Positions 1 to 31,169 of a DNA stretch of 49,992 bases are shown here, piece by piece; position 1 is the first letter of the stretch; the number at the start of each line of letters is the position of its first letter. The notes under the pieces are model-generated. The model did no database searches. It was given only the letters and a program-made list of their open reading frames with translations, and was not told the DNA's origin. The translations under genes and the position numbers were made by a program. The stretch is from Candidatus Omnitrophota bacterium (GTDB lineage Bacteria > Omnitrophota > Gorgyraeia > JABMRN01 > RBG-13-46-9). The stretch covers positions 1-49,992 of the forward strand of contig JBARPB010000068.1 in the NCBI GenBank assembly GCA_049642705.1. The letters are read 5' to 3'.

Positions 1-1330
1 TACCAGGCGTTGAACTGGGATATTCTTTCTTCACTGATTAATTCCCCTCTAACTTTCATGCCTTTTCTCGGCCTTAATATGAATTGCTCGATAACGCCGA
101 AGAAATATCCGAGGGTGCCGAGCAAAACAGCGCCGCCTATGATGGCATTGAAGAACATGGCAAAATACCACGGCAGGCGCAGGAGCTTTCCAAAAACAGG
201 CAAAAAGACTCCCGTCGCCCCGTCTCCACCCGGCATTATGCTGGACATAATCGGAGTCAGGGACGATATGCCGGCAAGCGTGAGATAGACACCTACGATC
301 ATAAAGGCCGCTCCCCCGGCAATCGCATACCACTTTGTCCTCCCTGCCTTTAGAAATTCCGGAGGATTTAATTTGGTTTTATCTTTTTCTCCTTTAGGCG
401 CACCCATGAGCCAGGCAGCACCCGGGCCGAATATGAACGCGGCAACCAGAATTGTGGCTGCTCTAAGTACAAGGTCAACCGGTACAAAATTCGTTAATTG
501 TGAGGCCAATAATGGAGGCATAATCAGAACGGCTGCAATAATGACAGATTCTATTATCGGCCAGAGATAAACTGAACGCCATAGTTTTCTTTTTGCTTTA
601 TAATCCTTTGTTTCTCTGCGTTCTTTTATTGTATCCCGGAATTTACGATATGCGGGTAATATGCCTAATACCGCTGCCGCAATAATGCTTGTCACCATTA
701 CAGCTTTGGGCGTAAGGAAAAGCATTCCAGCTATGGGAGCTCCTGATATCGCCATAAAAACAGTGGAAAGGCCTATCGCGAGGGACCACCTGAACTTAAC
801 AATATAGTCAAACAAAGGCGGATTCGCGCTTGTTTCGAGAAATGACGGCCACGTGCCGGCCGATTTCTGCCCCTTGGCGTGAGATTTTACTTCTTCTTTT
901 GTCCCTTTGAAACCGTGCCACAATTGTACAGGTTTTAAAACGAGCTTCATCAAATAAACTGTCGTAGAGGAAACAAGTTCAAAAACGCCTATTGGTATAT
1001 CGTGTATTATGAACGATGCGAGTACGTTGAACGGCTTGGCAGTCCTACCAGTACCAAACGGTGTAAGGGGTGGTTCGACAATTCCGAATATGTAATTAGT
1101 AAGAGGGCCTGTAAACTTGGGGTGAATCAGGAGAATCATTATAACTAAAAATATGATTTCTCCGACAAATGGAAACGCAATTTCGAAAACGCCGGGTCTT
1201 AGCATCGCGTAGAAAGTAAATATAAGCTGTATTGCCCATATTGGCTCGGAGAACATGCCCCGCGTAACGAGGCTTTCCGAATATTCCCCTCTTAAAGGAA
1301 GCTTGGGCTTGACCGATTGGTCAATAAGTG
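1..1330 (-). other. Polytopic membrane region following the GT2 domain (continues beyond the window)
   Basis: Translation gives successive hydrophobic stretches, for example IWAIQLIFTFYAML, FVGEIIFLVIMILLI, LAIGLSTVFMAISGAPIAGMLFL, IIESVIIAAVLIMPPLL, YAIAGGAAFMIVGVYLTLAGI and FNAIIGGAVLLGTLGYFFGVI (the last verified at 3-182). Confidence 0.5.
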
Positions 1331-4300
1331 TAATGGTTGTCTCTAAGATTTCTTTTTGTGGCCTTAAGCGGAATTCGAGTTCCTCGGCGAATGACGCAAA
1401 TTCCTTTCTTCTCCGGCGGCTTAGGGTTCTTAATTTCTTGCCGCGGACTTCGTCGCGGAGGAACGTATAAACATTTACGTATGGACCCCTCATCTTTTCA
1501 GCACACTCACCTCTTATACTTTCAGAAGCATCGTCTTCAGAATATTCTCTGTAGATACGGATGGAATCATTGCATGCCTTTAATGCTTTATTGTAATCGG
1601 TTTCCGCTACGCCCAGGCTAAGTATAGCACTCTTATTATTAACTAGAAAATCCTGCAGGCCTTGCAGCGTATTTCCCTCTTCTTCCGCTGTTTTTATTAG
1701 CTGTTCTGCGTATTTTTTCTGCCACTTGAGGAACTTATTGCGTTTTCCGTGCAGGTAAATGAAATTGCGTATGTCAAACGTGGGCAGCCACTTCGTTTCC
1801 TCTCTTTCCAGCTCTGACATATAGCTGGTAGGCGTTGCTTCATATATTATTGCTTTCGGAACATATCCGACCCTTCCGAAAATCCCATGGTAGGCGTCCT
1901 CGCTCTGGAGGTATTTCCTGTCGAGCTTGTACATGCTCTGGAATTGATTACCCGCAACTTCCACATGATAATATGGTTTTACCCTGAAGAAATATTTACC
2001 GAAGGACCTAACGCCTCCTTCCGCCAAAGTAGCGGCTGTCTGCGAGAAATTACCCAGAGCATTATTTGGGGTATGTTTCATTACGTAAGCGTATAAACTC
2101 TGCGGCGCATTATAAAATTGTATCCGCGGCTGCCAGACCATATAGTCGTCGTTCATGGTATTAATCATTCTGAGAACTGTATCGGATGTTGCGAAGTTAT
2201 CGCTGTCTAGAATTGAGCCGTTGGCAAGCAACGGTTTTCCGTCATCGGAAGTTTCGCCTCTTAATCTGCGGAGGTTTTTGAGCCCTTCGGCTGTCGCTAT
2301 TATACCGTATTTGCCATCCCCTTCCCCTACGTGAGGAATGCCGTCATTTCCGGTAGTTACATTACCGGGAACCAGATCTTGCGTTTTGACGCCGAATATA
2401 AAGTCTTTTGTTACGGGGTCGTTTTCTTCATTCTCCCGATTTAACCATCTGAATACCTTGTAGAAGTTATGCGGTTTGGCAACTCCTTTCATGCAGAATA
2501 CATAGAACCGGTCCTTCACGTCGGGCCTGTTTGCAAGGTCCGGATTTTCGTAAACCAGTTCTTTTAAAATATCGTAGTACTGTTTGTAGAGCGCCTCTGA
2601 ATTGCCCACCGCCTGCAGAATAAGTACGCTGACTACATTTTCGGAATTTATGTCTTTTAATACCTGGACATTTTTATTAATAACTCCTCTTAATTGGTCG
2701 TTGTTTATCGGCCGGAGCGGATTTATCATCACGAAACTTTTATCATCGCTTATTTTCGAAATTTCTATCGGGGATTTAAGGTCGGGTACCATGTTGAGTA
2801 TATTACCCACAATCCATACGATAAACTTAAGAAGGTAGATATCGATGATTATTGTGACGAGGTATATAAACGTAGCTGACCAGATAGGCAGCACAAAGTA
2901 GCTAGCGGCGGTGATTGCGTTGAAGTTCACGATGCTTATTGCAAGGGTCGTAAGAAGCGAGGTGCAGAAAATAAGAACTAATTTAAAGGGCAGGTGCTGC
3001 CTTAGAATTATATCCTTCTCTTTTTCGTCCCTGAATTCCTTCAAATCGGCCCCTTTGGGCTTTGTAAGGCCCCTCCAGGGCGGGGATTTGTTCCACTTGT
3101 ATAGCTTGTGAACTGCGATTGCAAACGTGACCACGGCGGAAATTACTATCGATATAAGCAATGTCGGGTTAGAGAGTATGTATAGAATAGCCGGATAAAA
3201 TAGATAACCTGCCCCTGCCACGCTAAGGCCTGCAATTATAGCTGTAATCATTTTCCGCTTTGTTGTTACTTCTGCTTGTTTATCACTAACAGTATCGCGC
3301 ATTTTTAATAAAGATTCCGTTGTGGGCTTGCCTGTTCCTGCTTTATCGCTGCTTTTGGGTTCATGTTTTGTGGTCAATTTTTTTCTGGAAAGCACTCCAT
3401 AAATAATTCCATATATGAATATCAATGATAAAATTGCTCCGGCTAATAATAAGGTAGAGAGCTTAGGGTTATTCCTTAAGTATTCATAAGCCCATGTTCT
3501 TTTTTTCTCAAGCCATGACCACGATTCCTGCCAGACTTCTTTATCCACCGCTTCGGTAAGCAACTCTTCTTGTGCTATCTTGTGCATAACGTTTATAGGT
3601 CTTGATAGATTCTCTTCCAGGAATTTTTTGTCATAATTAAAAATATCTTCGTCCGCAAGCCCTATATTCTCATCGGCAAAAGTATTTTGCGAATCTAAAT
3701 AGACCATTATATCCCTGAGGTTCATATGGGTAAGTAAATCAAAGGTGAGCCGCGGCGCCGCGGTTCTGTCGGAGAATTTGTCTTTCTTTTCATTGTCGCT
3801 TATTGCTTTTTGGCGCAGCGCGTCCATTTCCAGCGTCCTATCGACCAGCATCTTTATAACAACGGGGTTAATCTTCCTTTTGACCATTTGTTTTTTTATC
3901 TCTTCTTTTTTCAAAAGGATAGATGGGTCCTTCAATCTCGGAAGTTCTCTAGTCAAAACTTCTCCTATTGCGGCTTCATCCGGTTTTTCCTCTTTCGGAA
4001 GTTTTGCGACGCCCAATGAAAACCAGTTGTCGGTTGTATAAGCGATTTTAGCAAGCATCTTCTGGTCTACGGGGATTCCAAGGCGCTCCATTTCTTCTTT
4101 GACTTTCTTAATAGCGGCTATCCAGTTTTCCAGGTCTTTCTGCTCTAAGCCGTTGGCGAAAGCGTTGTTTGCCATAAGCTGCTTTTGGTCTTCGGTGATT
4201 TCCAGGCCGATTCCCTCTTCCTTGCCGAGCGCCCTGTTTAAATATTCCTTTAGTTTAAATATACTTCCCAAGTTTCGCATTTCCTGCTCAAGAATAGCTT

Positions 4301-7300
4301 TGAGGCTCAAATCATCTATTTTTTCCATCTTTGCTTCCAGATTTTTCTTTCTTCCCGGCGGTAAGTTTTCTTCGTTTACCGCTATTATCAATTCCATCTT
4401 AAGCCGGGTTTTTATCTCATCTAAAATCTGCTTTTCGTATCGTGAGCCAATAAAATCTACCTTATCGGAAACTAGTCTCGCTAAGCCGGACGCAAATAAG
4501 CGCTGCTGTTTGGAAAGCTCTCTTCCGTTGTTATAAACTTCGGCGTAAAGCCTGATGACCATTTCGGGAATCGTAACAAATTTATAGATTACTTCGTCTT
4601 CGCTATACCCTACGGTGAGCATTTTATCGTCTATATAGAAGCTTATTTCACCGTCCGTCAATTCTACCCCTGCGTTTTCTTCCGCTTTTCTCCTCAAAGA
4701 TTCTATAAGGCGCATTCGCTCTTCTTTACCGGTCACCGCGTCCTGCAGCATCATGCGAAGCTTCCTTGCTCTTCTTGCTCTTTCCGTGGCTATTTTTTCT
4801 TTATATTTTTCTAAAACCTCATTATATATAATTCCTTCCGACATGCGGTCTTCACATTCCCACTTTCTCTGTTGTACGCCTGCGATTTTTTCAACAAGCA
4901 AAGGCCACATAAAGCCCTCCAAGGTTTTTAGCTGCGGCCTTATAAGGGCGATAATATCGCCTTCTCTTCTCTTGCCCTCCTTATAAATAAGGGGTGCCGC
5001 TAAGTCCGTAAAACCCTTGGATACGTTCCTTACGCTCTCTACAAGCTCACCCTTAGCTCTTGTTATCTTGCCTTCGGTCATGCCCTGGTTTTTACCGCGC
5101 TCTCCGGAGAGTATTTGTTCCAACTTCTCGAAATGCTTTACCCTATTTTCGAGTTCATCTTTTGTCATGGTCTCTCCGAACACTACTATCCATTTCTGCA
5201 GGAGATAACGGTAATCCTCGAATCTTCCTAAAGGCATAAAGGCCCATTCCGAATGGTATGTAGTTTCGAATCTTCTTATCTCTCTTCTCAGTTCATGAAT
5301 ATCAAGTTTTTTCTCATCGCCTCCCCTTACCTGGTATAATATACTGTAGATATTGCACCAGTTGAAAAATCTGCCTTGCGTCCTGTACTCCTGCTCTTGA
5401 ACAACTTCTATATCATCAAAGGTATTGTCCATATAATCTTTTGGGAGGCCCCGGCTATGCATGCGAACTACAAAACCCCAGACCTCCGCTTCGGTAGCTT
5501 CTGGAATAAGGTCAGCTACATCTTTATTATATTTTCCCCTTATTTTATCGCGCAACTTGCGTTCCCGTTCCCTGAAGTAAGCCGCACAGTCTATAAATTT
5601 GCCGATTGTTTCTTTTGTATAACCACGTGTTCTCTCAAGGAGCGTCATTAAATTACCTACTTTGCCGGCTTCAAGCCTTTGCGGTATTGTTATGATTCCT
5701 GTCTCCAATATCTCTTTAATCTTTTTTTCTGCGTCTTTTAATTTAAGATCCTGTATGCAACGAATGAGTACGGACTTAACTTCGGGAGTTACAATAATCG
5801 TCCGTTTATTGTAAGCCATGTACACTGCCTGGATGTAAATACGTTTTTCTATATCCTGAACCAGCTCTTCACGGGTTTCAATTCCCTTGCTAACTATGTA
5901 ATCTGTACCGAAATATACGGCTTCCTGGTCATTTACAGCTTCCAGGCCGAGTTCTTCTATGTAATCTCTTATTTCTTCTTTCTTTTCTTTACTAACATCC
6001 CATTTCCAGTCTTTTTTGTCTTTCAGTTCTTCAAGCAATCTTATGGACGCATCTTCTTTTGCTTTTTGCGCGGCATCTATATTCTTAAACACTTCCTCAA
6101 CAGCCAAATCCGGCTTATCGTATTCCTTCCTTAGCCTGTCGACAAGCCTTGCGTAATAGGGTAGCGCCTCCATTTCCAGCTGTTTCCAGTTTGTTTCGGC
6201 TGCCTTATATATATCGGCCATCGTGATAAAGAATTTTTCCATTTCCTCCGGCGAAAACTTGCCATCGACCATAAACTGCGGCTCGTTATCGATGGTGAAC
6301 TCTATGGTGAACTCTGCCCATGCCTTTAAGGTTCCGAGGTACCTACCCTGATTCATTCCGTAGTAATCAAACTCTAAGGGTTCGGCGCCTTCTTCAATTG
6401 CCCTGGCAAGCGCTTCGTCCTGCATGGCAAGTATGTCTTTAAGATTCTCGCCTATATCAGATTCGTAAAGATATCTTGCCAAACCAAGGCCTTTGGGATC
6501 TAACATCCTATATATTGACCCTATAGTCATGCCTTCGTTGAGAGATAACCTGGCGGGTATTACTGCGCGGTTCTTTATATTAACGGCATCGGCAAGTCCT
6601 GTGTCTTCGCTATAAACCTCCGGTACTGCCTGCCTTAATTTTACGAGATTATCCAACACAAAGTCCCTGTCGCAGGTAAGGAATAATGCGTGCGGCGAGA
6701 GGTGCGCCTGCCATTGGGTGTACTGTGGGCCAAACATTAATGCGGCCCTGTTCTGTGCTAAAAGAGATGTGCCTTTTTCTCCGCTGTATTTTCTCTTCGT
6801 CTCGCATGCGGAGTGGAAAGCCGCTATACTCAAGCCGAGTATATTACGCCTCTTGCCCTGGTCTTCTATAACGCGCCTGTAGTTATTAATCAGCATTTTC
6901 ATTACAGGGTTAGTATCTTCTGCTACAAGCATATTAGGCAAGCACAACTGGAATGCGCCTCCGTCCCATGTTGCGAGCACCGGTATTTCTTCGCCTGTTA
7001 ACAATTTGTAATTCCTTATCTCGATATCAGAGCTTAAGATGGAGTCCCTATCTATTTTGCCCATAGCCGCAAGGATTTGGCTATTTAGCCTTGATTCGCT
7101 TCCCAGTGTGCCGGCCGGATGCCATGTTTCTTTTGAATCTCCGAGCATACCCCCTACGAGAAGCTTTCTATCTCTATCGTAAAGTATGGTATAGTCTTGT
7201 GATTTTATTATCGAATCAGCCACTCTTTTTATTTCTTTCCCTTCTTCTGTGGCATCGTTTTTGTAGGCTTCTGATACTATTTTGAGGCAGGCTGTCAAGT

Positions 7301-10300
7301 TTGCGTTATCAATAGAAGGCAGGTAGTAATCTTCTATGGTGGGTATGCCAAGGCCTTTGGTTTCGTACCATGCATAAAAAAGACCGGATTTATGTCTTTC
7401 CATTTTTTCCATTGTTTTTAACATCTTTAGAATCGCGCTTCTTGCCTCGTCTTCGGTGGCTATCTTCAAGTCTCTTGCGGCGACAAATGAAATAAGCCCC
7501 ATACCTATATTGGTAGGCGAAGTAGTTGTCTGTAAGGGTACTATTTTCCCCCGGGCAACTTTATATTTATCTATGGGAATGCCGCTTTTGGATATCATGC
7601 GCTTCATTGCATTAAATGCATCTTTAAAATAGCTCTTCAAAGCTTCTGTTTTTTCGGCTTCTGACATGGCCTCGGCCGGGGCGGTAGGCGTAGCGGGGAG
7701 AGGCGCTGCTTCTTCCATTATCCTGCGTATATACTCGTTAAATCCGTCTTGTATTGCTATCGTTCTGTCAATTTGCTCAATGCCTTTTTTCATTTTTTCG
7801 GCAAGGGGTAATTTACTTAAATCCCTGTCGTCAGGCCTTACAATATTTTCCGCTATGCTAAGGATAGTTCCCATTACCTCGCCCATGAGCTCGTTATCTT
7901 CTTCTGCCTCGGCTTTCTTTATAAGATTACACAATTCTCCTTCCGACAGAGCATGGCCCTTAATGGCGAATCTGCCGTTTATCAGGATTTTCTCGATTTT
8001 TTCTATTGTCTGGGCCGCGCAACGCAGCATGGCATTCATCTCTTCTTCGGTAATAGGCTCTTTCCGTTCCTCGATTACGCCGGCCTGGTTCTCCCGGGTG
8101 CGCATTGACCTCTCAAGCGCCATGAGTTTACCTGCGTCTTTTGGGCTGTCGAGATTGAGCAGCCTTTCAAGGGGCTTACGATAAAATTCCTGCGCCCCCG
8201 GCATTATACCCTTCATCCTTGTAAGCCTTTGGTCAAGGTCCGGGATTGATATTCCTTCTTTTACTACGACTTCAATCGCATAGAAATAGAGAAGGCCGAA
8301 GTCATCGGGATTTGCGGCATCCATCTTGCGCTCAAGGAATTTTTCAACCGGTCTTTTCACAAGCGCGATATTTTTATATATGGTTTTGAGCTCTTTTGAT
8401 AAGGCATTAATGGTAGCTTCCTCAGAAATATCCGGACTAATTGTAAGGCGTTCCGCGCTATCTTTTTCTACGATATGGGTAACGCCGTTTCTTTCAAATA
8501 TCCTATCGGTCGGTTTGATAACAACACTTTCCCCTTCCCTCGGAATAAGAATAACGCTCCCGTTATCTCCTGCCTTAACCTTGAAGGTCTCGAGTCCGAG
8601 TTTTATCCAGCCCATATTATCATCTTCTTTTTCAAGGTCTCTTGCTGATGGCAGTGTTTTGGTATGCAGTTCTATAAGGAAATCTGCGGTGGAAAGAACC
8701 TTTCCGATTTCCAACTGGTCCATGATTTCCTGTATTTTCATTACAATGGCTTTCTTGTCTTCTTCGTGCACAGGTTTCCCTTCCCGTTCCAGCCTTTTGT
8801 ATCTTCCCACGAGCCTGCCGATTTCGACGAAGTCCGATTTTCTCATATTTTCATATTCGCCATTTATACCGCGCTCTATGTGGTCTAGTAATTGATTAAG
8901 GGCGCGTTCATTTATTTTGGCTTTACCGTCCTTGCCTATCAACCGCCCAAGAAGATGATTGATTTTGCCCACATAACGGATATAATTAAATTTCTCGACA
9001 TCCGTTTGGATTTCGACACAAAGATCCGTAAAGAGGTCCAGTCTTTTATAATCGCTGATCGTAGCCCCCGAGGGATTCTTCATATATCGGTTTGACAAGA
9101 ACATGACCGCAAAACTGTATTCTGCTCCCGCTGCTTTCAGGTCGCCGTAAAGATGATATGTCCTACCGGGCCTTAGCCTCTCGAGTGCCTTCTTGGCAAC
9201 CATCCTGAGGTATTTCCAGTATCTTTCGTCATCCATCCTCTGGAACCTGTATTTTCTGGTGTCATTACGCATAATCCTTAGCGTCTTTATGAAATCGCCG
9301 GGGTCCTCCCCTTTGTATCCTTTGCCTTCATACCAGGTTTCAGGATTCCTGAACCAGTCTACGAGTTTTTCCTGTATTACCTGCCAGTCGCGGTCTATAG
9401 CGTCTAAAATATTTACCGGAATACCCTCCTGCAGTGAATCCATGGCCTGGCCCGAATAATGGTCTATGAGGCCCAGGAGCCTTACGGTGTTAACACCCAT
9501 GTAACCCTTGGCCTCGTGAGTAAGCAGGCCTTCGTATCCGCTTAAAAACGGAAACATGGTGCAGTCACTCTTGATAGACATGAATATGCCCCTTATATCG
9601 GATGGTTTCACAAGATTGGAATATTTAATTTCCCCTGCGACTTCTCTTTCTATTCCGGATACGTCTACCATGTAAACCGTTCCGATTTCGCCGAGAATAA
9701 AGCCGGTAAGGTCCTTTCTTTCACTTTCCGATAAGCTTAATTTATGTTTTTCGGCTATGCCATCTATGAAGTCCCCTATTTTTTCTCTTGCGACCCTTTT
9801 AAAGAAGTTGTTCCAGTTTTCGACTATTTTTTTAGTGACCATCTCTTTATATCTTATCTCTTCTGCGTAATCGCCCTTTGATTGGCCGATAAGCGTCGTG
9901 CTGTCTTCGTTTTCTATTATCAATCTTGCAAAATCTTCGAAACTTATAAATCTTTCCTTACCGGGGACTTCATGCTGCCTTGTCCAATCCAGTGTTTCGT
10001 TTATCAATATATCATACAACACTCTTATATTTTCTTCTGCTCCGGCGTAGGCGCTAAGATCAGGTGCCGGTTGTCTTATTCGGGTTTCAGTCTGTGGAAT
10101 ATCCCAGTTCCGCGCCTCGTAAGGTTCTTCCGCCTCCGGCATGAACGCTGGAATGAAGGGTGTAATTATTCCGCGATTATTTTCCAGAAATCTGAGCATG
10201 CCGATCCGTAGTTTCTTTCCTGCAATCTCCCGTTTTTTCTCTTCGATTTCTTTCCTCACTTCTGTTGCCCGGGCCGGCTTTACTTCCTCTTTTACAAATT

Positions 10301-13300
10301 GAACCGCCGGGGTTTCAAAAGTTGTCGGACTTCTGAAAATTTTTCCTTCGTCTATGCCGAGCAGTCTTGCGTACTCTACCAGGTTATCAACGGCGTTTTT
10401 GTGCGCAAACCGCGCGTTGTTTAAGGCATCTACGCTTTCGGTATACTCAATTTCCGCAGAGCTTAACTCTTCCGCCACTTTGTGGATTCCGGACCACAGT
10501 GTCTTATCGGGAATATTTTCAAATTCGTCCCATTTCTCGCTAAGAAGTTCCATTGCCAAACCCGCCCGTTCTGCGGCAAGGACACATCGCCTTGCCGTAT
10601 AGTTGATGCTATCAACCATGGCATCAATCCTATTTTCTACCTCAAGCCTTTTTTGTTCTTCGAGCCGTTCGAGCTCATGTTGCATAAGCTCTTTAATCCT
10701 TACCTTCTCTTTTTCGGTGTTGCCTATCAATCTGATAGACCACTCCATTCCCATATCCCACGTTAGCGATGCTCCTCCGCTTCCCGCCACAGCACTACCC
10801 AAGATGCTTAGCCTCGAGCTTCCTTCAGGGCCCTTTGGTATAATCCTGCCTAATATGCCCTCGCCGCCAAGCGCCGCCTTTTCCATTAATAAAACGGCGC
10901 GCTCCGCGTTGATACTATTAAGGGTCGGGTCTTCTTTGAGCGCCATAACAACAAATTTATCCATGTCCGGGAGCCTGACTTCTCCGGAGAAACTATTCCA
11001 TCGCGCTTCAAGCCATGTTTCCTGTAACTGGTTTAATTTGGGCTCGTCTTTACTATGCACATCTATTGTCGTTATCGTCCTTCCCGAATAATCCTTTACG
11101 TCGTGTTTATGCCTGTGCCAATGGCCGAACCAATAGAAAATACCTTTTTTGGCCTTATTGACTCTTTCGAGTTCGTTGGCATATGCTTCGTACGCTTCCC
11201 GTTCTTTTGTGTCGACCTTTTCTTTCTCAAATTCGCTCATAATCCTTCCGCCGAATATCGGAATCCTTATACCGGTCGCATCAACTGTTTTTAAAAGGTC
11301 CAGTAAGTCACTTTTAGCGCTTTCGAAACGTTCCCTGGCAATGGCAAGGTCCCTCTCGGCCATTGCGACGGCGTCTTCCGCGCCTCTTATGCCCTTTTCA
11401 TCCCCTTTAAAATAAAGGGTTAGATTTCGGGCTCTGGCGGCAATTGTGTCAAGGAATTTCTCTGTCCTTTCTATTCTTATCTCGGCTATTTTTATCGCCT
11501 GCGCCGCGGCAAGCATTTCATTTACTTTTGTTATAAGTGCCTGGCGAAGCTCAAAATTTCTCTGAGAAAGTTCGTATTCTCTTACTTCCAAATGTTTCCT
11601 GGCAATCGGTATATCCTCATCGAGGAAATCTATTCTATAGGCAGCCCCTAAGGACATATTGTACTCGAGGGGACCTGTTTCCGGTTGTGTAACGCTTAAC
11701 TGAAATGACGCGTCGATTCCTTTTGCAAAAACAAATAACTTCTCTATTTTCGATTCCTCGCGCGCAAGTTCCGCCCTATCCCTGGCATCTTCGTCGATAG
11801 TCGTGATTGCTTTCTTCCGTAAGTCCTCTTCGTCAAGTTCCTTTCCGAGTGTTTCGTATTCACTTCTGTAAATCTCGGCTATTGCCCTGTCGATTGCGCC
11901 GGCGAGCGCCAGCCCTACCTGAGATCGCACCGCGATGGAGGCTTTTAATATCTCATCCAGGTATATTCTTTCCACGTCATTTCCGTATTTCTTTTTGAGG
12001 TCAGATAGGGTGTCTTCGGCCCTCGAGAGGCGGCCCATATAAATAGCGAGTATCCTCTCGGTATTCTCAAGATGCCACCTATTCATATTTCGTTTGTTCA
12101 GCGTGGTAATTAATAAATCCCTCCTGTCGCGCTTGGCTTTTTCCAGCCATTTTTTTGCGCTTTCGATATCTATTCTCCTGTCTTTCCGAATTACGCCCTG
12201 CCATAAATCAACGCCGGTACCCCCTGCTTTCGCTGTAAAATCCAATGAAAACATGAATCTGAAATTTGGATTTTTATTTGCTATTTCAAGACATTTCTCG
12301 GCTATTAATATGTTAAGGTCTGCCCCGTCGAAATAGATTTCGTAGTCATAGTTATTTTTTATAAATGCCTCCAGCCTGTCCGATAACTCTCTCGCTATCG
12401 CATCCGGCCTTTTTCCCCTAAGGGAATCGGCGAAAGCTATCCCCAGTTCGGCATGTTCATCCAGTCCCACGATTTCTTTTAAATTGCTTTCCTCCCGGCG
12501 TATGATTTCCAGGTTTTCGTATCTTTGCGCAATCGCAAATTCGTATTCAATTTGCGCTCTGTATAATTCTTTTACCGCATCGAGCACGCCTTTGAATCTC
12601 ATCTGTCCGGACAGGCTCAATACCCCTTCCAAGATCTTTTCCGCTTCTTCGCCCCATTCATTCAGTAAATCGGCGAACTCCTTATCCTCCGTTATCCGAA
12701 TTTTTTCCGCGATGCCCTCCATTTTCTCCAAGCCTTCTCTCAGCCCCTTGGTATCTATGTTATTTCTGTCAAATTCCGTCAGAACCCTTTTTGCTTTTAC
12801 CATCCATAACGGCTGTGATTCAAGGACGCTTTGTTCCCAGTTAAAATGAAGCGCATAGGCCTTGCATAAATCGCTGTACGCTGACGCTATGGATTGGGCA
12901 ATATCATTGTCGATCGACCTTATGGCCTGCTGGCGAAGTTCCCAGTCAAGTCCGTATAACTCGAGTTTTTCCTTCTCGCCTCTTTTTACCTCGAATTCAG
13001 TCCCTAAGAACGGCCAGCCGGCTTGCACCTTTCGCAGTTTAACGTTGGACCCCGGTAATCTGGCTTCTTTAAATTTATCTTCGTACCTTATTTCTGCCGC
13101 TTCTGAACTAATTTCTGCCTGCATCCTGTCGTGTCGCCTGTCCCTTGCCATAACAATGAGACTTTTCAAATTCATATTCTCAAGTTTTGCCTCATCTACC
13201 GGCTCGAGCATTTTTCTTGCCCTTCTGGCATATAGAAGCTGCGCGCCCAATAAATCCAGCGTCTTTTTCCAGTCTCTATTGCATTCTACCTTACTTATCG

Positions 13301-24486: not shown

Positions 24487-27400
24487 TTATACTGCCATCA
24501 GGATTTCTCTATATCTATTAATCTCTCTTTCTAGTTTATCTAAATCGACCTTCTCCATAGGCGGTAATATATACAGTAGCAGACCTTTCTTTATAATCTC
24601 TACGCCAGGTATATCGGGCACATCAAATCTCCTGGCCCATAATCTAAGTGCGAGGTCAAAAACCCTCTCCGTAATTCTATCTCGATACTGAACAACCACT
24701 ACCTTCTCTTCTTCTTCCTGTGCTGTTAAGAACGCTTCTTCTTCTTCGCTTAATCCCCTGTATTTGTCGATAATAAGTATATTTTCTGGAGCGTATCCTT
24801 CAGCGCGATATCTCTCATAAGCTTCCTTGATGTTCAAAGGCGGAGCTTCTCTCTCCGATAAATCCAGGCGTTCAGCTTTTACTACGTCGTCTATTCTCAT
24901 CTTCTCCAGCCAGTCTCGAGGTGCTTCTTTTATTACTCTCAATTCTTCTTCACTTAATTTGGCTTCTATGTCTAAATCAAACTGTTTTGCTCTTCTTCTA
25001 TGCATTTCGGCTGTCGTCTTTAATTCGCGTAATGAATAAACCGTAGCACGAATAAGGCCTTTCTTGGCTTCTTCTATACGATGTCCTACTACGAGCGGTA
25101 GCGGTTCCTGTGCTATATGTTCTCTTACTCTTTCTTCGGCTCGCAAATTATATATACTCAACTCTGCAAGTCTTTCGGATGCTATAGGCGTAAGCGCGGG
25201 AACGGAAAGCAAAGGAAGCTCTCCTAGCGCTGAGAGGACTATACCCTTGAATTCTTCATCCTGCTCCAGCCATTTCGGTGATATTAAATAGCCTTTTTTA
25301 GATCTTAAGGTGCGTATAAAGAGACTGAGTTTTTCTTGTTGTTTAAGTTCCGCAGGCGATACTCCCCTCTGTTGAGCCCTATAATGCATACGCGTAATAA
25401 CGGCTTCGAGAATCTCTTCTCTGTCTTTTCTTTGTTCAGGTGTAAGCTTACCTATTTCAGCACCGAATAATTGCTTTACTCTCTCTACAGTCGGTTTCTG
25501 CAACTCGGCTGTCACTCTTCTCCCTATCGCTTTTGTCTTTTCCTCTTCGCGAAGTTTCAGTATTGCTTCTTCAGGCACAACTTCATGAAGCGTTAATCTG
25601 CCTTCTTCGTTTCTCGTAAGAGCGACCTGATATTCAATCCTGCCTTCCTTGTAGTCTCTTATTACTATAACTTCTTTGCCATCAACCCTTGCCACTCTTA
25701 TGACAATGCCTTCGCCTTCCTCTATGCCAACGGCCTTTCCCTTTTCGTCTACTTGCACTCCGAATGTCTCGTCAAATTGCTCCAGCGTAATCGGTCTCTT
25801 ATAATGCGCCTCTCCTCTTCTCAGTCCTTCCATTACCTCAAGGTATTTACGAAACGCTTCACGATGTTCGAGTACAAGCAGTTCTATTGGCTTGCCCTTC
25901 AAATATGCCAATCCATATGCTCCAAATAAACCTCTTAAAATCTCTTCCGGCGTATCCGTCCAACAAAGAGCAGGCGCAGAAAGTATATATTCCTCTGTAT
26001 CAAGGAGTTTTTCATACGGCTGGCGCTTATTGGTGAGAACCGCTAAATAAGGCCTTTGCTCTCCTTCTTTGAATTTCGGCATAACCACAAGATAGGATAG
26101 ACCTTCTTCCTTCATAACCGAGGCTAGCCCTTTTGAGTGGAAACCGCCTGTTATGAGGGCTGCGAACTGTTCGGCATGTTTTTTCATTACCCGGATAGTA
26201 TTGGCTATCATAACCTTGTTACGTCGCTGGGCAATATTGTAAAATTCAACGGCTTCTTCTGTGTTGTCGAATATTATGCCAAGGTCGTACTCATGTTCAA
26301 AGATAAGGTTGTGTTTAGCGTAGTTTTTCTTTATGAAATCACTTATAAGGGTTCTATCAAAGTAGCGCTTTTTAGCCTTTATGAAGTCGTAGTCATTGTT
26401 ATTTAGGGATATTTTAAAGAGCCCATCTATGGTTCTTACGGCTTTGGTTAGGTTGTATAGGGTCCTTTCTTCATCGTTACGGAAGATCTTTTCCCTTATA
26501 TAGTCTTCAAACTGTTCTACTTCCTGGAATAGCACCAGTAGGTCTATATCTTCATATATAGTGATGTATCTTGTGAATTTAATAAGATTTGAACAGGGCT
26601 TTGGATCGAGTTTTATGTCTTGGGCAAGTCTTATCAAGTATTGCTGGAACTCTGTTTGGGATATTTTCCCTTTTTTGAAAGACAGTGATTCAAGGACAAG
26701 TTTCTCAAGCTCTCGCTTTGGAAGAACCTTGGATAGTTCATCTATAAGGAGCTTTCTTTCCTCGTTTGCTTTTACAAAGTCTATGTCTTTTTCGAGTTCT
26801 ATGGACTTTAATAATTTCGAGAGATTTTCGAATATTACTATTTCTATATTGTTTCTTTTTGCCAATTTCTCAACAAAATCCCAGTGTTTAGTGAAGGCGA
26901 GGTTGCCTTCTTGGTGAAGGATTGAGTTTTTATTAAGTTTAAGAAGGTCTTTTGAATATACCTTTGGCTCTATGGCTTTTAGAGTATTTAAAAGGCCCTG
27001 GATGTTTTCAAGACATACAACTTTCTTCTCCATTAACTTATTTAGGGCGTCTATGTTAGCTTGATAAAGCTGGCTATTTTCAATTCCATATAATTTTATT
27101 GGCTTTTCAGAGACAATGGAGAAGAACTCGCCCGCTGACATCTTGCCCTCTCTTATGAAATAATCGGCTATATCCTTCCTTATCTCAGGATCCGGGAAGG
27201 TCTTAAGTAGGGATATATCTACGGGCCCTTCTGCGCCTTCAAGGGCTATCAATTCAAGGTCATAGTTTGAGGCGAGGTTTTCTAGGATTTTAACTATGGA
27301 GTATTGTGCGGTAAGGGATGCGTGGGCATCCTGGATATTTATGACGACTTCATCCCCGCTTGTAGAAAATGCCTCCTGGGGGGTGCCTGCGTCATACGGA

Positions 27401-27552
27401 ATCTTTATTCCATTTAAGATAACTCTTCCGTTAATCTTAATGACCGGCTTTGCCTGGTGCCATATGGGGGTTCCGCCCTGTGTCCAGCTTATATCATAAA
27501 ATAAAAAGGCAAATAGTAAGATAAATGCTATTGCCTTATACCAAGTTTTCAT
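24487..27552 (-). CDS. Signal-anchored 1,021-aa protein; stand-alone paralogue of the N-terminal ~640 aa of giant protein 1, with a unique Glu/Arg-rich C-terminal half
   Basis: ORF on the track. GAGGT lies 9 nt upstream of the ATG and the stop is TAA. The N-terminal hydrophobic helix is followed by the conserved GGTPIWHQAKP. There is long collinear similarity to the hand-translated 22000-23915 product. I recognised no domain in aa ~660-1021. Confidence 0.85.
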   Translation of the reverse strand: MKTWYKAIAFILLFAFLFYDISWTQGGTPIWHQAKPVIKINGRVILNGIKIPYDAGTPQEAFSTSGDEVVINIQDAHASLTAQYSIVKILENLASNYDLELIALEGAEGPVDISLLKTFPDPEIRKDIADYFIREGKMSAGEFFSIVSEKPIKLYGIENSQLYQANIDALNKLMEKKVVCLENIQGLLNTLKAIEPKVYSKDLLKLNKNSILHQEGNLAFTKHWDFVEKLAKRNNIEIVIFENLSKLLKSIELEKDIDFVKANEERKLLIDELSKVLPKRELEKLVLESLSFKKGKISQTEFQQYLIRLAQDIKLDPKPCSNLIKFTRYITIYEDIDLLVLFQEVEQFEDYIREKIFRNDEERTLYNLTKAVRTIDGLFKISLNNNDYDFIKAKKRYFDRTLISDFIKKNYAKHNLIFEHEYDLGIIFDNTEEAVEFYNIAQRRNKVMIANTIRVMKKHAEQFAALITGGFHSKGLASVMKEEGLSYLVVMPKFKEGEQRPYLAVLTNKRQPYEKLLDTEEYILSAPALCWTDTPEEILRGLFGAYGLAYLKGKPIELLVLEHREAFRKYLEVMEGLRRGEAHYKRPITLEQFDETFGVQVDEKGKAVGIEEGEGIVIRVARVDGKEVIVIRDYKEGRIEYQVALTRNEEGRLTLHEVVPEEAILKLREEEKTKAIGRRVTAELQKPTVERVKQLFGAEIGKLTPEQRKDREEILEAVITRMHYRAQQRGVSPAELKQQEKLSLFIRTLRSKKGYLISPKWLEQDEEFKGIVLSALGELPLLSVPALTPIASERLAELSIYNLRAEERVREHIAQEPLPLVVGHRIEEAKKGLIRATVYSLRELKTTAEMHRRRAKQFDLDIEAKLSEEELRVIKEAPRDWLEKMRIDDVVKAERLDLSEREAPPLNIKEAYERYRAEGYAPENILIIDKYRGLSEEEEAFLTAQEEEEKVVVVQYRDRITERVFDLALRLWARRFDVPDIPGVEIIKKGLLLYILPPMEKVDLDKLEREINRYREILMAV

Positions 27553-27825: not shown

Positions 27826-28443
27826 CTAAAGGCTATTTTGGGGGTGTTTTTTGACGATACGTCTGATAAGAAAGAAGGTAAGTATAATGAGAAATGCTGT
27901 TACTATGTTTTTTGGTGTCAGAAATAGAGGGCCCTGCGGAATTTCTGCGGCATTCAATATTTCGACAATAGCTTCTGTGCCTTTTTTTATGCCCTCGGCG
28001 TAATTTCCCATGTTGAATTCAGGCGCAATTTTGTTTTGTATAATATCCTTGATTATAGGGTCTGTTAATATGCCCTTAAGATTCTGGCCTACGCCTATGG
28101 TCATTCGTCCTTCCTGTAAGGCAATGAGCAATATTACGCCGTTATCTCTCCTTCCCTTTTTAATCTCCCGCCATTTTTCGCCGTACGCCAGCACAAAATT
28201 CTCGAATTGCCAGCCATCCAGGGAACGAAAAGTGGCTACAATCATCTCTGCCCTGTCCGGTGTTTCCTGCTTCACCGAGGATATAAGTTTTTTGAGATAA
28301 TTTTCGGCATTCTGGTCGAGAATGCCGGCGTAATCGTTTATGGGCGTCTCTGTCCTGCCGGGAACCGGGATCCTGGCAAATCCTGTTTCCGCATAAAAAA
28401 TAGTGAGAACTGATACTGCAAAAATGACAAATACCCTTTTCAT
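27826..28443 (-). CDS. TPM-domain (TLP18.3/Psb32/MOLO-1 family) protein with signal peptide and C-terminal TM helix
   Basis: N-terminal hydrophobic leader. INDYAGILDQNAENYLKKL...EMIVATFRSLDG...NGVILLIALQEGRMTIGVGQNLKGILTD...GNYAEGI matches the TPM pattern (v.D.agiL...ei.vvtv.sl.g...nGvlll.a...r..rI.vG.gle). The C-terminal helix is IVTAFLIILTFFLI. The start overlaps the upstream stop (ATGA). Confidence 0.8.
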   Translation of the reverse strand: MKRVFVIFAVSVLTIFYAETGFARIPVPGRTETPINDYAGILDQNAENYLKKLISSVKQETPDRAEMIVATFRSLDGWQFENFVLAYGEKWREIKKGRRDNGVILLIALQEGRMTIGVGQNLKGILTDPIIKDIIQNKIAPEFNMGNYAEGIKKGTEAIVEILNAAEIPQGPLFLTPKNIVTAFLIILTFFLIRRIVKKHPQNSL

Positions 28444-29921
28444 TTGGATTTTAATCCCTCCTTGTCGATTTTTCCGTAACTATTTCTGGGCATTATTTTC
28501 ACCATCGCGATGCGCGAGGGCATCTTGTAAGGCGGCAGGCGCTCTTTACATATTTGCCTGATTTCCTCGCGGCTCATCGCCTGCCCGTGCATCAGGGTTA
28601 CAAAAATTTTGATCCTCTCGCCCAGGATCTTATCGGGCACACCTATTACAGCCGCTTCCATTACCCTCTCGTCTTCGGTTATAAGGTATTCTATTTCCCG
28701 CGGGTTTACGCGACGGCCCCCTACCTTTATAAAATCTTTCTTGCGGCCGGCTATAAAAATATCGCCGTCTTCGTCCCTGAAAGCAATATCTCCTGTATGA
28801 AGCCACCCTTTTTTTATAACCCTTCCGGTTTCTCTATTTTTGCCCCAATAGCCGAGCATAATGTTTTTACCCAGGGCTAATATTTCGCCTTTCTCGCCGG
28901 GTTTACATGGCTTATTCTTATTATTAACAATCCTTACTTTAACCCCGGGGATAGCCTTGCCTATAGAATCGGGTTTCTTCGCGGCCAGAGAAGGGTCAAG
29001 ATAGGTCAGTCTCGGCGAGGCCTCGGTCTGCCCGTACATCAGATAGAGTTTTTTACCGGGAAAGGTGTTTATTAGCTCCCGGGTTATTCCGGGAGGCATG
29101 GCATCACCTGCCTGCATAAAGTACCGCAAGGAAGCAAGTGCCCTTTTCCCGATTTCGCTTTTATGAAGCAGGATTGAATAGTGCGATGAAACACCGGCAA
29201 AGCCCGTGGCCTTAAACCTCTCGATGGTGCCCAGCACTACATTAGGGTACATAAAACGGTTATCGAGAATAATCGTCCCTCCTGCTAGAAAAGGGGAGAA
29301 TAAAAGCGATAGGCCGTAGATATAATAAAAGGGTAATACGCAACAAATCCTGTCAGAAGAAGTGATTTTCGCGTATTTTATAACGGATTTACTGTTCGAA
29401 ATTAAGTTTCTGTGGCTAAGCATCACCCCGATGGGCACCTTCGCCGTGCCGGAAGTATATATTATCGACGCCGGGTCGTTTTGCAAAACACGGGGTAATT
29501 TAGCGATTTTAGCGGACGGCGGGTTATCCCTGATGGTAAATCTTACGGATTTCACCTTTTTTTTGACGTTTTTTGCTTTCTTTTTTAAATCTTTTCCCGC
29601 GTATATCGCTCTAATCCTACAGTTATCGGCCTCTCTGACTATATCGCGCCAATCAAGGGTATGGTTTAACGGGACGGAAATACCCCCGGAGCGTGATACC
29701 GCAAAATATACCGCTACACACGAAATTGAATTGCGCGAGAGGATTCCGACTCTTTCTCCCTTTTTGAGGCCCTTTCTCAGGATTTCGTCTGCAATGGCCT
29801 TGACTTTTTTATCGAGTTTTTGATATGTAATTGACCGGCCCGTATCGGCCTCTATGACGGCTTTGCTGCGTGGCCGTTTTCCGGCCGCATCAGAGACAAG
29901 GTCGTGGAGACAGGAAATCAT
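28440..29921 (-). CDS. AMP-dependent synthetase/ligase (ANL superfamily; DltA-like or acyl-ACP-ligase-like adenylating enzyme)
   Basis: IIYTSGTAKVPIGVMLSHRNL (the YTSGTTG.PKGV core), MYGQTEAS, GWLHTGDIAFRDEDGDIFIAGRKKDFIKVGGRRVNPREIE and PRNSYGKIDK are the canonical A3, A5, A7/A8 and A10 adenylation motifs. Confidence 0.9.
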   Translation of the reverse strand: MISCLHDLVSDAAGKRPRSKAVIEADTGRSITYQKLDKKVKAIADEILRKGLKKGERVGILSRNSISCVAVYFAVSRSGGISVPLNHTLDWRDIVREADNCRIRAIYAGKDLKKKAKNVKKKVKSVRFTIRDNPPSAKIAKLPRVLQNDPASIIYTSGTAKVPIGVMLSHRNLISNSKSVIKYAKITSSDRICCVLPFYYIYGLSLLFSPFLAGGTIILDNRFMYPNVVLGTIERFKATGFAGVSSHYSILLHKSEIGKRALASLRYFMQAGDAMPPGITRELINTFPGKKLYLMYGQTEASPRLTYLDPSLAAKKPDSIGKAIPGVKVRIVNNKNKPCKPGEKGEILALGKNIMLGYWGKNRETGRVIKKGWLHTGDIAFRDEDGDIFIAGRKKDFIKVGGRRVNPREIEYLITEDERVMEAAVIGVPDKILGERIKIFVTLMHGQAMSREEIRQICKERLPPYKMPSRIAMVKIMPRNSYGKIDKEGLKSK

Positions 29922-29922
29922 A

Positions 29923-30171
29923 TCATTTCGACTTTAGTTTTTTTGTTATATATCTTTCGAGATTATTAAGCGTATCAAAGTTTTCCGGCATGATTTCCGG
30001 TACTTCTATCTTAATGCCGTATTTTTCCTGGATGAAGCTGGCAAGTTCGATAACACCTATGGAATCAATAATGCCTTTTTCAAGAAACGAGTCGCCGTCG
30101 TCCAAACGGGCGGAGTCGCTTTTGAGGTAATTAGAGATGATAAATCTCCTTAGCTCTTCTTTTATATGCAT
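29923..30171 (-). CDS. Acyl/peptidyl carrier protein (DltC-like ACP)
   Basis: 82 aa. LEKGIIDSIGVIELASFIQEKYGI contains the D-S-[IL] phosphopantetheine-attachment motif. The gene ends 1 nt before the ligase start codon. Confidence 0.8.
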   Translation of the reverse strand: MHIKEELRRFIISNYLKSDSARLDDGDSFLEKGIIDSIGVIELASFIQEKYGIKIEVPEIMPENFDTLNNLERYITKKLKSK

Positions 30172-31154
30172 AGCCTCTTTTTTGCCGCCTGTATTACTTT
30201 CTTGTTTTTGCGGAAAGGTATATGCTTTAAGCCCTCTTCCCGCCTCATGTACCCTTCCCTTACAAGATTCGCTATTTCCAGGACATACGGGTGGAAACCG
30301 TGCCTTCTTATATGCACAAGGTCAGCCAGGGGGTTCAAAAGGCAATTTGTGGCGTTCAATTCGACCCCAGCGGGCATCTTCCATCCGAGATTTTTTATTC
30401 TATTCAATACCCTTTTCTCGTTATAGTCCAAAAAAGCGAGGGGGTGTACAAAAATAGGGAACTTCTTCCCTTTAGCGTAATGGCGCTCATTTAAGAAATA
30501 GGCCTCTATGGCCCTGCCGGCTATTTTTCGCAGCGGTTTTTTCAGCGCTTTCTCCATGTTTTTTATCATTGCGGGGTTTATTTTAAGCACGGAAGACGTA
30601 ACCGGCGCCTGTCCGGGAGACCACCCGAAACCTACAAGAGGAATCTCCTTTTCGACGGCGATTTTTAAGGACGCGTACTTGACGAGCCCTATGCACGAGG
30701 TGCACACGGCGCTTGCCCTTTCCGAAGCTTTCGGAGAATAGAGAGACCTCTTTAGGGCTGTTTTAAATATTTTTTTTAATATATCGAAACGCGGTTTAAA
30801 AATCATGTGGTCGATGCCCAACTTCTCGACGACGTTACGCATATTAACGTAGGTCCTCCCCGGGATGAAGCCGTTGTCAAGCGTAAAGGCCAGTATCTTT
30901 AGCTTGTATTTATTCTTTAACTCGCTAAGCGTGTATGTTGAGTCCTTTCCCCCGCTGTAACACATAAGAACATCATATTGTCCTTTACCGGCAACCTTCT
31001 TAAGGAGTGTCTGAAATTTCCCCCTGTATTCGCTCTTTAATTTTTTCTGCACCTTCCGCCCGCGGTAGGCCCGGCACAGGCTGCAGACACCTTTTCTGTC
31101 AAACCTTATATGTGGAAAATTCTCCGGCAGAATACAGCGTTTACACCTTTTCAT
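30162..31154 (-). CDS. PP-loop ATP pyrophosphatase, N-acetyl-sugar amidotransferase family (WbpG/PseA-like)
   Basis: An N-terminal Cys-rich ribbon (CKRCILPENFPHIRFDRKGVCSLC) is followed by the CYSGGKDS PP-loop. Length and order match what I recall for the TIGR03573-type LPS-sugar amidotransferases. Confidence 0.7.
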   Translation of the reverse strand: MKRCKRCILPENFPHIRFDRKGVCSLCRAYRGRKVQKKLKSEYRGKFQTLLKKVAGKGQYDVLMCYSGGKDSTYTLSELKNKYKLKILAFTLDNGFIPGRTYVNMRNVVEKLGIDHMIFKPRFDILKKIFKTALKRSLYSPKASERASAVCTSCIGLVKYASLKIAVEKEIPLVGFGWSPGQAPVTSSVLKINPAMIKNMEKALKKPLRKIAGRAIEAYFLNERHYAKGKKFPIFVHPLAFLDYNEKRVLNRIKNLGWKMPAGVELNATNCLLNPLADLVHIRRHGFHPYVLEIANLVREGYMRREEGLKHIPFRKNKKVIQAAKKRLCI

Positions 31155-31169
31155 GCGATATCTCCTGTT

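Follow-up and report, generated by a model that had tools for sequence, protein, structure and literature searches.

A giant protein of a Candidatus Omnitrophota bacterium that joins a divergent OpgH/Cgs-related processive synthase to an SGL-clan domain

We analyzed a 49,992-nucleotide stretch of DNA from a Candidatus Omnitrophota bacterium (contig JBARPB010000068.1 of assembly GCA_049642705.1, positions 1 to 49,992 of the forward strand), which is referred to below as the window. A giant gene on its minus strand encodes a membrane-embedded processive glycosyltransferase (GT) of a deeply divergent family related to OpgH and to cyclic glucan synthase (Cgs) and, on the same polypeptide, an (α/α)6 domain of the SGL clan, which comprises GH144, GH162, GH192, GH193, GH194, and GH189. 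The reading that we prefer, and that we hold with roughly even confidence, is that a synthase in the style of OpgH and BcsA is fused here to a periplasmic glucanase that trims its product, within a giant protein of the Archaeovorin-like type. Giant proteins of this general kind are already known, as is each fold in this one. What is new here is the synthase family, which Pfam and NCBIfam do not recognize, the fact that it is joined to an SGL-clan domain predicted to lie across the membrane, and the specific assignment that this gives to a large piece of a giant protein.

According to the reading that we prefer, the cytoplasmic GT-A processive domain, as distant OpgH/Cgs (GT84) kin, would polymerize a β-linked glycan from a nucleotide sugar. 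For the product, the likeliest candidate would be β-1,2-glucan, which is pointed to, rather than proven, by the type of the fused glucanase and by the affinity of the GT to OpgH and Cgs. The flanking membrane helices would then guide the glycan through to the periplasmic side, where an all-α region of ~930 residues and the SGL-clan domain, both on the same polypeptide, would await it. There, the (α/α)6 domain would cut or release the nascent chain, and a TolC-like segment that lies upstream in the same stretch, which is free of transmembrane (TM) segments, may carry the product outward. β-1,2-Glucan biology is known mostly from Proteobacteria, through OpgH/OpgG (osmoregulated periplasmic glucans) and Cgs (cyclic glucans), and GH144, GH162, GH189, and GH192 to GH194 have been defined only in recent years. 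If our reading is right, it adds to the synthase lineage a deeply divergent family that curated models do not recognize and gives a concrete biochemical function to ~2,500 residues of a largely unannotated giant bacterial protein. A synthase fused to an SGL-clan enzyme across the membrane would also be a natural construct for studying synthase-hydrolase coupling.

The giant gene and its synthase domain

The minus-strand frame is free of stop codons from nucleotide (nt) 24137 to nt 3, which is 8,045 codons, and the ATG at 24068 is the likely start of the gene. Because the frame leaves the window at its first base, the C terminus of the protein is missing. A preliminary description of this DNA, made from the sequence alone, had taken the interval from 1 to 7620 for the C-terminal ~2,500 residues. 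Since the frame runs off the window, these are the last 2,500 visible residues and not the true C terminus. The closest relative, L002, is encoded on a metagenome-assembled genome contig labeled "uncultured Planctomycetia bacterium," which was the only locus returned by a scan with the single protein. L002 shares 41% identity with the window protein over 2,211 aa and 74% in the GT core, and it continues for ~1,100 amino acids (aa) past the point that matches the window edge before it reaches a stop codon. When 1.84 billion representative proteins were searched exhaustively with HMMER, the GT segment had 37 relatives among them, mostly fragments of proteins of 2,000 to 8,000 aa. The existence of these 37 relatives and of the L002 homologue means that the giant gene is real and that its homologues are present at the protein level in metagenomes. 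The domain order in the giant protein is GH130, then, much farther along, (α/α)6, helical region, and GT (Table 1), which bears out the permuted order of the preliminary description, in that it is the reverse of the GT84-GH189-GH94 order of Cgs.

The GT domain carries the motifs LDSDN, VWQPRI, and EREETKW. Scans of Pfam and NCBIfam at E values up to 10, including Glyco_trans_2_3 and MdoH, returned nothing relevant for this segment, and single-sequence phmmer returned no match to it in the PDB. Comparison with Escherichia coli OpgH was not significant by BLASTP, by Smith-Waterman alignment with shuffles (z = 3.5 only), or by hhalign against the single OpgH sequence (probability of 3 to 7%). A word-indexed homologue search found only one relative of the GT and one relative of the GH130 domain.

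Profile searches gave a different picture from these single-sequence comparisons. When a profile of 14 members of the GT family was compared with the PDB, the sole meaningful match was the GT84 domain of Cgs (8rf9; E = 5e-4, 22 bits). This match covers Cgs residues 713 to 763, in which 'ILSHDLLEG...VEDFP...SRQHRW' of Cgs is aligned with 'IQSEDAIHG...LESTP...AREESKW' of the GT family; the DxD stretch is collinear but below threshold. Judged from this alignment, the kinship to Cgs is real, and it is too distant for a decision on membership in GT84. When the GT was compared by hhalign with an OpgH profile of 11 members (E. coli and ten plasmid-borne mdoH genes), the probability was 78.5%, with an E value of 1.7e-5 and a score of 47.8 over 264 columns. 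The same comparison gave scores of 14.5 for a reversed control and ≤18.8 for 30 column-shuffled controls. The alignment with OpgH spans the region from the NPLRP / P-x-x-NE motif to REETKW / RDRRW.

The AlphaFold2 (AF2) model of aa 7040 to 7760 (pLDDT 82, pTM 0.77) has a seven-stranded GT-A core between long helices. In a Foldseek search of the PDB, this model matches hyaluronan synthase (HAS; 6e-7), Cgs (2.6e-6), CesA, and BcsA, with E values of up to 6e-4 at a probability of 1.00. The top 20 matches are almost all membrane-embedded processive synthases, and one of them is the polymerizing galactofuranosyltransferase GlfT2. The global TM-scores are low (0.24 to 0.43), which is expected where membrane helices differ. 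Among the 14 family members, D7414 and G7380-K7381 are invariant, and D7311, R7445, and W7450 are nearly invariant. Based on the profile and fold results, we conclude that the GT is established as a membrane-embedded processive GT-A synthase of the HAS/Cgs/CesA/BcsA class. Its family is very rare and new to the curated libraries. The preliminary description had called this domain an OpgH-like multi-TM GT2 because of LDSDN, VWQPRI, and TKW. That label is right at the superfamily level, since the PDB profile search, the OpgH profile, AF2, and Foldseek agree.

The catalytic domain of this family tolerates large insertions. Three relatives (P0004, P0006, and P0007) have a hydrophobic insertion of ~70 to 80 aa between the 'FGKY' block and 'QSED', and the window protein (aa ~7470 to 7600) and P0002 have a helical insertion of ~130 aa after 'KW...FD'. 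P0002, which is 53% identical in the GT, has ~2,600 aa more after the GT and membrane region. This tail contains a phosphodiester glycosidase (NAGPA) match just under the Pfam cut-off (23.6 versus 25 bits) and a pyruvate-phosphate-dikinase-type ATP-binding domain. No recognizable domain was found in the L002 tail past the GT and membrane region.

The (α/α)6 domain and its catalytic residues

Compared with all PDB chains by single-sequence phmmer, the (α/α)6 domain matched exactly four sequences. These are the isolated cyclization domain of Thermoanaerobacter italicus Cgs (TiCGS; 8wy1, 1.4e-15), Agrobacterium tumefaciens Cgs (8rf9/8rf0, residues ~1000 to 1426; 8e-15), and 8xuj (9e-15, or 4e-20 with the clade profile), which is EeSGL1, an endo-β-1,2-glucanase of the new family GH192 (PMC12102758). 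The motifs TSPTNIG, GLFYAWYET, and PSIDNANL, which the preliminary description had associated with NdvB/Cgs, are present, and the matches to TiCGS and Cgs confirm that association; TSPTNIG, FYAWYE, and IDNANL are also the most conserved blocks of the SGL clan as a whole. Pfam DUF3131 reaches 18 bits on the domain, which is under its cut-off. On the strength of these sequence matches, we conclude that the domain is a member of the SGL clan. Of the clan-defining residues, the general-acid Glu is the one that we mapped; the other two are Phe and Tyr.

The alignment with EeSGL1 runs in one continuous, collinear piece over the whole domain at ~25% identity. The alignments with Cgs, in contrast, are broken at the extra ~165 residues of GH189: chain positions 139 to 303 of TiCGS are without counterpart, because query positions 186 and 193, between which they fall, are nearly adjacent. 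A long α5 and extra helices between α4 and α5 set GH189 apart, and its catalytic residues include the TiCGS nucleophile E1442 and also E1400 (PMC10834661, PMC12102758). In two independent HMMER alignments, the position of the nucleophile, which is the Glu of 'WGISE', is occupied by Ile5771; we checked this correspondence by counting in both Cgs alignments. The position of E1400, which is specific to Cgs, is occupied by Gln, as it is in EeSGL1 and in the GH192-like homologues, and the sequence 'TWDGGAFQ' agrees with the GH192-like group and departs from 'SWSGxMFE', the motif of Cgs.

For the comparison with GH192 and the SGL clan, we used the published residue roles, including that of D149 as the candidate base of EeSGL1 (PMC12102758). 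Glu5681 (in GSESRL; NESRL in EeSGL1) aligns with E221 of EeSGL1, with E1356 of TiCGS, and with the Glu of S-E-x-R in 25 of 25 homologues, and Asp5610 (in IDNANL) aligns with D149 of EeSGL1 (VDNGNL). Because the domain retains the general acid and the GH192 candidate base and lacks the features of GH189, the catalytic make-up points to an inverting glucanase and not to a retaining cyclase or transglycosylase. We rejected identity as a GH189 cyclase, since the nucleophile, E1400, and the GH189 insert are all missing; of the trimming or cyclizing role that the preliminary description had offered for the domain, the cyclizing one is therefore not supported. A single CAZy family cannot be assigned from these comparisons. 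A profile of the three closest sequences scores 82.7 bits with GH189 (in two pieces) and 75.3 bits with GH192 (in one piece), which is nearly equal, and in the N-terminal third of the domain the resemblance to Cgs slightly exceeds that to any glucanase, with 8wy1 the best match.

The closest relatives of the domain, P0038 (54% identity) and P0039 (47%), are not parts of giant proteins. They are stand-alone genes in ordinary neighborhoods that encode proteins of 538 to 559 aa with N-terminal signal peptides, and the stand-alone relatives P0040 to P0045 also carry signal peptides. After these come secreted GH192-type proteins of ~440 aa, and further out are actinobacterial "glucoamylase family" proteins with PF10091 and PF11329. 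At Asn5867 (6537-6539, minus strand; 'LSLNEGM'), 25 of 25 homologues have Asp in 'SLD(Q)GM', and the two closest relatives have D-E and D-L at this site.

Membrane arrangement, accessory modules, and neighboring genes

The long helical stretch that the preliminary description placed before the GT is present (nt 3471 to 6287) and is all-helical in the AF2 model, with a pLDDT of 66 overall and ~80 for its C-terminal half (aa ~6440 to 6890). By phmmer, we found it in P0003, P0013, P0015, P0021, P0023, P0029, P0031, and L002. It has no credible Foldseek match in the PDB (none at E <0.07) and no detectable similarity to tetratricopeptide repeats (TPR). As it is strictly associated with the GT and is predicted to be periplasmic, the most economical guess is that it serves as a conduit or a scaffold. 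The membrane region that follows the GT, where the AF2 model also has long helices, has phmmer matches in all GT-bearing homologues, down to an E value of 1e-157, and is a candidate for the translocation channel. In a phmmer map of 15 segments across all retrieved homologues, the unit that stays constant consists of the latter half of the helical region, the GT, and the post-GT polytopic region. Neither the (α/α)6 domain nor the GH130 domain was found by phmmer in the other giant homologues that share this core.

A hydropathy scan places five TM helices between the helical region and the GT, with loops that alternate between long and basic ones and very short ones, and it detects no hydrophobic or TM segment within aa 2521 to 6889. 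Since the GT is necessarily cytoplasmic and the five TM helices lie between the two domains, the (α/α)6 domain is predicted to be extracytoplasmic, with the membrane between it and the GT. This placement is further supported by the TolC-like OEP segment in the same TM-free stretch and by the signal peptides on the stand-alone relatives. The scan is a crude one, and the topology derived from it is a prediction rather than a demonstration. A second, weaker OEP match lies near aa 4220 to 4280, and both OEP matches fall in a coiled-coil-like stretch of ~1,500 aa. An OEP match is present in the homologue P0003 as well, but it is weaker and does not reach the cut-off.

The GH130-like propeller that the preliminary description saw on the same chain is confirmed by Pfam PF04041 (34 to 37 bits against a cut-off of 26; E = 2e-8 to 3e-9). 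Its nearest solved relatives are 9fj8, the β-1,2-oligomannan phosphorylase Teth514_1788, and 7fip, a β-1,2-mannobiose phosphorylase. We compared its residues with a published rule that covers the proton-donor Asp, the phosphate-binding Arg and His (R168 and H231 of Uhgb_MP), and the linkage markers (PMC7660257). The proton-donor Asp is kept in 'VEDAR', which aligns with 'EDPR' of 9fj8 and 7fip, and the Glu that precedes it is of the β-1,2/1,3 type under this rule. The phosphate-binding His in 'FTHG' aligns with 'YHA' of 9fj8. The Arg in 'YVRP' is one position off the Arg of 'LHR' in P0066 and 9fj8, in a mid-domain part where the alignment is poor, and the +1-subsite Lys that marks β-1,2 specificity ('FKNFVP') can be placed only with a two-residue shift. 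By its residues, the domain looks like a β-1,2-type mannoside phosphorylase. It is very divergent, with one homologue among 5.8 billion clusters.

The divergence of the GH130 domain and the uncertain placement of its +1-subsite Lys, together with Asn5867 in place of the Asp of all 25 homologues, might be taken to mean that the (α/α)6 domain, the GH130 domain, or both are catalytically dead glycan-binding modules that hold the cell's own or a foreign polymer. Glu5681 and Asp5610 are kept in the (α/α)6 domain, however, and the proton-donor Asp and, apparently, the Arg/His pair are kept in the GH130 domain. We regard dead modules as decidedly unlikely.

The GH130 domain comes after a signal-peptide-like N terminus, and between it and the (α/α)6 domain farther downstream lie ~4,300 residues with at least 8 hydrophobic segments. 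We know of no GH130 enzyme that acts on glucans. The characterized members described in PMC4599007, PMC7660257, and PMC12814180 and those among the PDB matches act on β-mannosides, and some β-1,2-mannoside phosphorylases are reported to be weak GDP-Man transferases as well (PMC12814180). Because these members act on β-mannosides, it is unlikely that the domain substitutes for GH94 in a glucan machine, and we rejected that role, which the preliminary description had given it for control of chain length, on the grounds of substrate class, distance, predicted compartment, and lack of co-conservation. It is probably a separate accessory module that acts on β-1,2-mannosides. For GH94 itself, no related Pfam match was found in the 8,045 aa of the window, from which the last ~1,100 aa of the protein are cut off, nor in L002, which reaches its stop.

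These results also bear on the idea, taken from the preliminary description, of a permuted Cgs-type machine in which the GT, a cyclizing (α/α)6 domain, and GH130 make a length-controlled and possibly cyclic β-glycan. The presence of three domain classes on one polypeptide, the slightly Cgs-like N-terminal third of the (α/α)6 domain, and the apparent phosphate-binding Arg/His pair of GH130 are consistent with such a machine. We nevertheless consider it very improbable. The (α/α)6 domain lacks the residues and the insert of GH189, the GH130 signature is that for β-1,2-mannosides (PMC7660257), the GH130 and (α/α)6 domains are far apart and separated by TM segments, the GT and the (α/α)6 domain are in different predicted compartments, and the three domains are not co-conserved. 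What stands is the more general suggestion that a GH-type domain might limit the product of a synthase to which it is fused, which is plausible.

Further toward the N terminus, a domain at aa ~100 to 830 (window 21650-23840, minus strand) follows a signal-peptide-like segment and is common to the near-complete giants P0021, P0023, and P0031, with E values down to 3e-58. Its only Pfam match is a faint, ChaN/Tiki-like one (E = 0.16). Neither this ChaN/Tiki-like identity nor those of two other stretches suspected by eye, one nucleotidyltransferase-like (aa ~1200 to 1440) and one NAGPA-like (aa ~1560 to 1790), had a significant Pfam match, and we do not claim them.

All sizeable genes of the window lie on the minus strand. 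GC skew and AT skew are both below zero over nearly its whole length, and the GC content is ~45%. The co-directional genes from 28440 to 33561 resemble a set that would acylate an exported polymer in the manner of Dlt or alginate systems. The second giant protein has YMGG-type glycine-zipper repeats near aa 700.

Table 1. Features of the giant gene and of its neighbors in the window
Feature	Position (nt)	Strand	Details
Giant gene	3..24068	minus	>8,022 codons from ATG 24068; C terminus runs off window start
GH130 five-bladed-propeller domain	20589..21566	minus	aa ~858-1183; predicted extracytoplasmic
TolC-like OEP segment	14229..14585	minus	Pfam PF02321, E 1.3e-5, 25.6 bits versus cut-off 22; inside TM-free stretch
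(α/α)6 SGL-clan domain	6288..7580 (approx.)	minus	aa ~5520-5950; PDB matches ~1e-15; clade profile 82.7 / 75.3 bits
Asp5610	7308-7310	minus	Candidate general base, (α/α)6 domain
Glu5681	7095-7097	minus	General acid, (α/α)6 domain
Ile5771	6825-6827	minus	At GH189 nucleophile position
All-α region	3471..6287	minus	~930 aa; conserved with GT in all giant homologues
Five predicted TM helices	2784..3470	minus	aa 6890-7118, between helical region and GT; hydropathy scan and loop charge
Cytoplasmic GT-A processive synthase domain	1263..2783	minus	aa 7119-7625
D7311/D7313 (LDSDN)	2199-2207	minus	DxD motif, GT domain
D7414 (QSED)	1896-1898	minus	TED/SHD position, GT domain
R7445...W7450 (REETKW)	1788-1805	minus	GT domain
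Post-GT polytopic membrane region	3..1262	minus	aa 7626-8045; at least 8 hydrophobic segments; cut by window edge
1,021-aa protein	24487-27552	minus	Directly upstream of giant gene; no Pfam or NCBIfam match
TPM-domain (Psb32-like) protein	27826-28443	minus	
Acyl-CoA ligase	28440-29921	minus	Closest to exosortase-associated type
82-aa carrier protein	29923-30171	minus	'IDSI' serine motif in 'GIIDSIGV'
WbuX-like N-acetyl-sugar amidotransferase	30162-31154	minus	
DUF1574 protein	31170-32165	minus	
DltB-like MBOAT	32125-33561	minus	E 2e-46
Second giant gene	34493-49828	minus	5,111 aa; SecA DEAD-like, preprotein cross-linking, P-loop, and wing/scaffold domains, aa ~2219-3080

In Omnitrophota, giant multi-TM proteins that carry GT and GH domains and either contain divergent SecA domains or lie next to them have been read as tools for the attachment to and degradation of prey (bioRxiv 10.1101/2023.11.21.568195; see also 10.64898/2026.06.07.730766). 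Carried over to the window protein, this would make it a weapon of the Archaeovorin type on the surface of a predatory or epibiotic cell, in which exposed SGL-clan and GH130 domains degrade prey or host glycans, for example, periplasmic β-1,2-glucans or β-mannosides, and in which the GT has an unrelated role or anchors or secretes the protein. Two giant genes are neighbors here, and the second one has the SecA DEAD, preprotein-binding, P-loop, and wing/scaffold domains. The SGL-clan and GH130 domains are variable accessories that are absent from the homologous giants, both are predicted to be extracytoplasmic, and the closest relatives of the SGL-clan domain are ordinary secreted enzymes. All of this is consistent with a weapon. 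However, the catalytic motifs of the GT are all conserved and are accompanied by a dedicated membrane region, and this conservation, which argues for a working synthase, is our main argument that something is made. In addition, the adjacent acylation genes fit the production of a glycan, and there is no direct sign of predation for the source organism, the only named relative being labeled Planctomycetia. We judge a predatory function to be rather unlikely; if it were the correct one, β-1,2-glucans and β-1,2-mannosides would be targets in bacterial predation.

Several observations weigh against a synthase with an outside trimming glucanase. The similarity of the GT to OpgH and Cgs is remote, with a PDB profile match of 22 bits and no Pfam or NCBIfam match, and only the closer GT relatives have the WQP motif and the second Asp of DxD. 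The number of TM segments before the GT is odd in six of eight relatives (5, 5, 3, 3, 3, and 1) and is 2 in the two others. Because the (α/α)6 domain is missing from giants that have the same GT core, it is non-essential to the synthase, and because Asn5867 replaces the Asp of all 25 homologues, its activity is not certain. The sugar and the linkage of the product are ones that we infer, and the literature on such giants favors degradation at the prey surface (bioRxiv 10.1101/2023.11.21.568195).

A more far-reaching version of the synthase reading is that the protein, at >9,000 residues, is a complete and self-contained, envelope-spanning exopolysaccharide machine that consists of a new and very rare synthase family, a new all-α periplasmic conduit, a β-1,2-glucanase that controls chain length, and a TolC-like duct for exit. 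We think that this is unlikely. If it were true, this single polypeptide would be a fused version of the separate proteins of synthase-dependent systems.

Comparison with known systems

Like OpgH (MdoH, GT2), the synthase domain is a polytopic inner-membrane GT-A synthase, with collinear P-x-x-NE, LSD-type, DxD, Q-x-P, SHD/SED, EE-x-P, and R-x-x-RW/KW motifs. The similarity extends to the logic of the proteobacterial system of OpgH with OpgG/OpgD (GH186), in which an enzyme that cleaves β-1,2-glucan handles the product outside the cytoplasm. In contrast with OpgH itself, whose sequence is only remotely similar, the synthase here matches no Pfam or NCBIfam family. The predicted outside enzyme has an (α/α)6 fold of the SGL clan and not the GH186 fold of OpgG/OpgD, it is fused to the synthase, and ~930 aa of helical region and extra TM helices lie between the synthase and the trimming domain.

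Cgs is the only solved structure that is matched both by the GT profile and by the (α/α)6 domain, and, as in the window protein, it has a membrane-embedded processive GT and an SGL-related domain on one chain. However, the domain order is reversed here, the GH189 nucleophile, E1400, and the α4-α5 insert are absent, and no GH94 domain was detected; the GH130 domain is unrelated to GH94 and is of the mannoside type. All domains of Cgs are cytoplasmic, whereas the (α/α)6 domain here is predicted to be periplasmic.

Synthase-dependent exopolysaccharide systems (BcsA-BcsZ-BcsC, Alg8-AlgL-AlgE, Pel, and Pga) share a logic of an inner-membrane processive GT, a periplasmic helical scaffold, a trimming hydrolase or lyase, an outer-membrane conduit, and an MBOAT-type acylation set, and BcsZ, AlgL, and PslG trim or release the polymer. 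The same logic of parts is what we propose for the giant protein and the nearby MBOAT-type set. The differences are that the parts here are on one polypeptide, that the exit element is TolC-like and not a β-barrel porin, and that the scaffold is without detectable TPR similarity.

Compared with the GH192 enzyme EeSGL1 (8XUJ; PMC12102758), the (α/α)6 domain has a single-piece, full-length alignment, the same general acid and candidate base, 'TWDGxxFQ', and secreted relatives. It differs from EeSGL1 in that the identity is ~25%, its N-terminal motifs are nearer to those of Cgs, it is embedded in a giant protein, and it has Asn in 'SLDQGM'. Finally, the window protein resembles the Archaeovorin-type giants of Omnitrophota (bioRxiv 10.1101/2023.11.21.568195) in its size, its many TM segments, its mix of GT and GH domains, and its neighboring SecA-bearing giant gene. 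A term search of that paper, by contrast, found no OpgH/Cgs-type synthase, SGL-clan, or GH130 domains, and whereas the SecA domains of the Archaeovorin type are said to lack the wing/scaffold part, the SecA-bearing neighbor here matches PF07516 with an E value of 2e-6.

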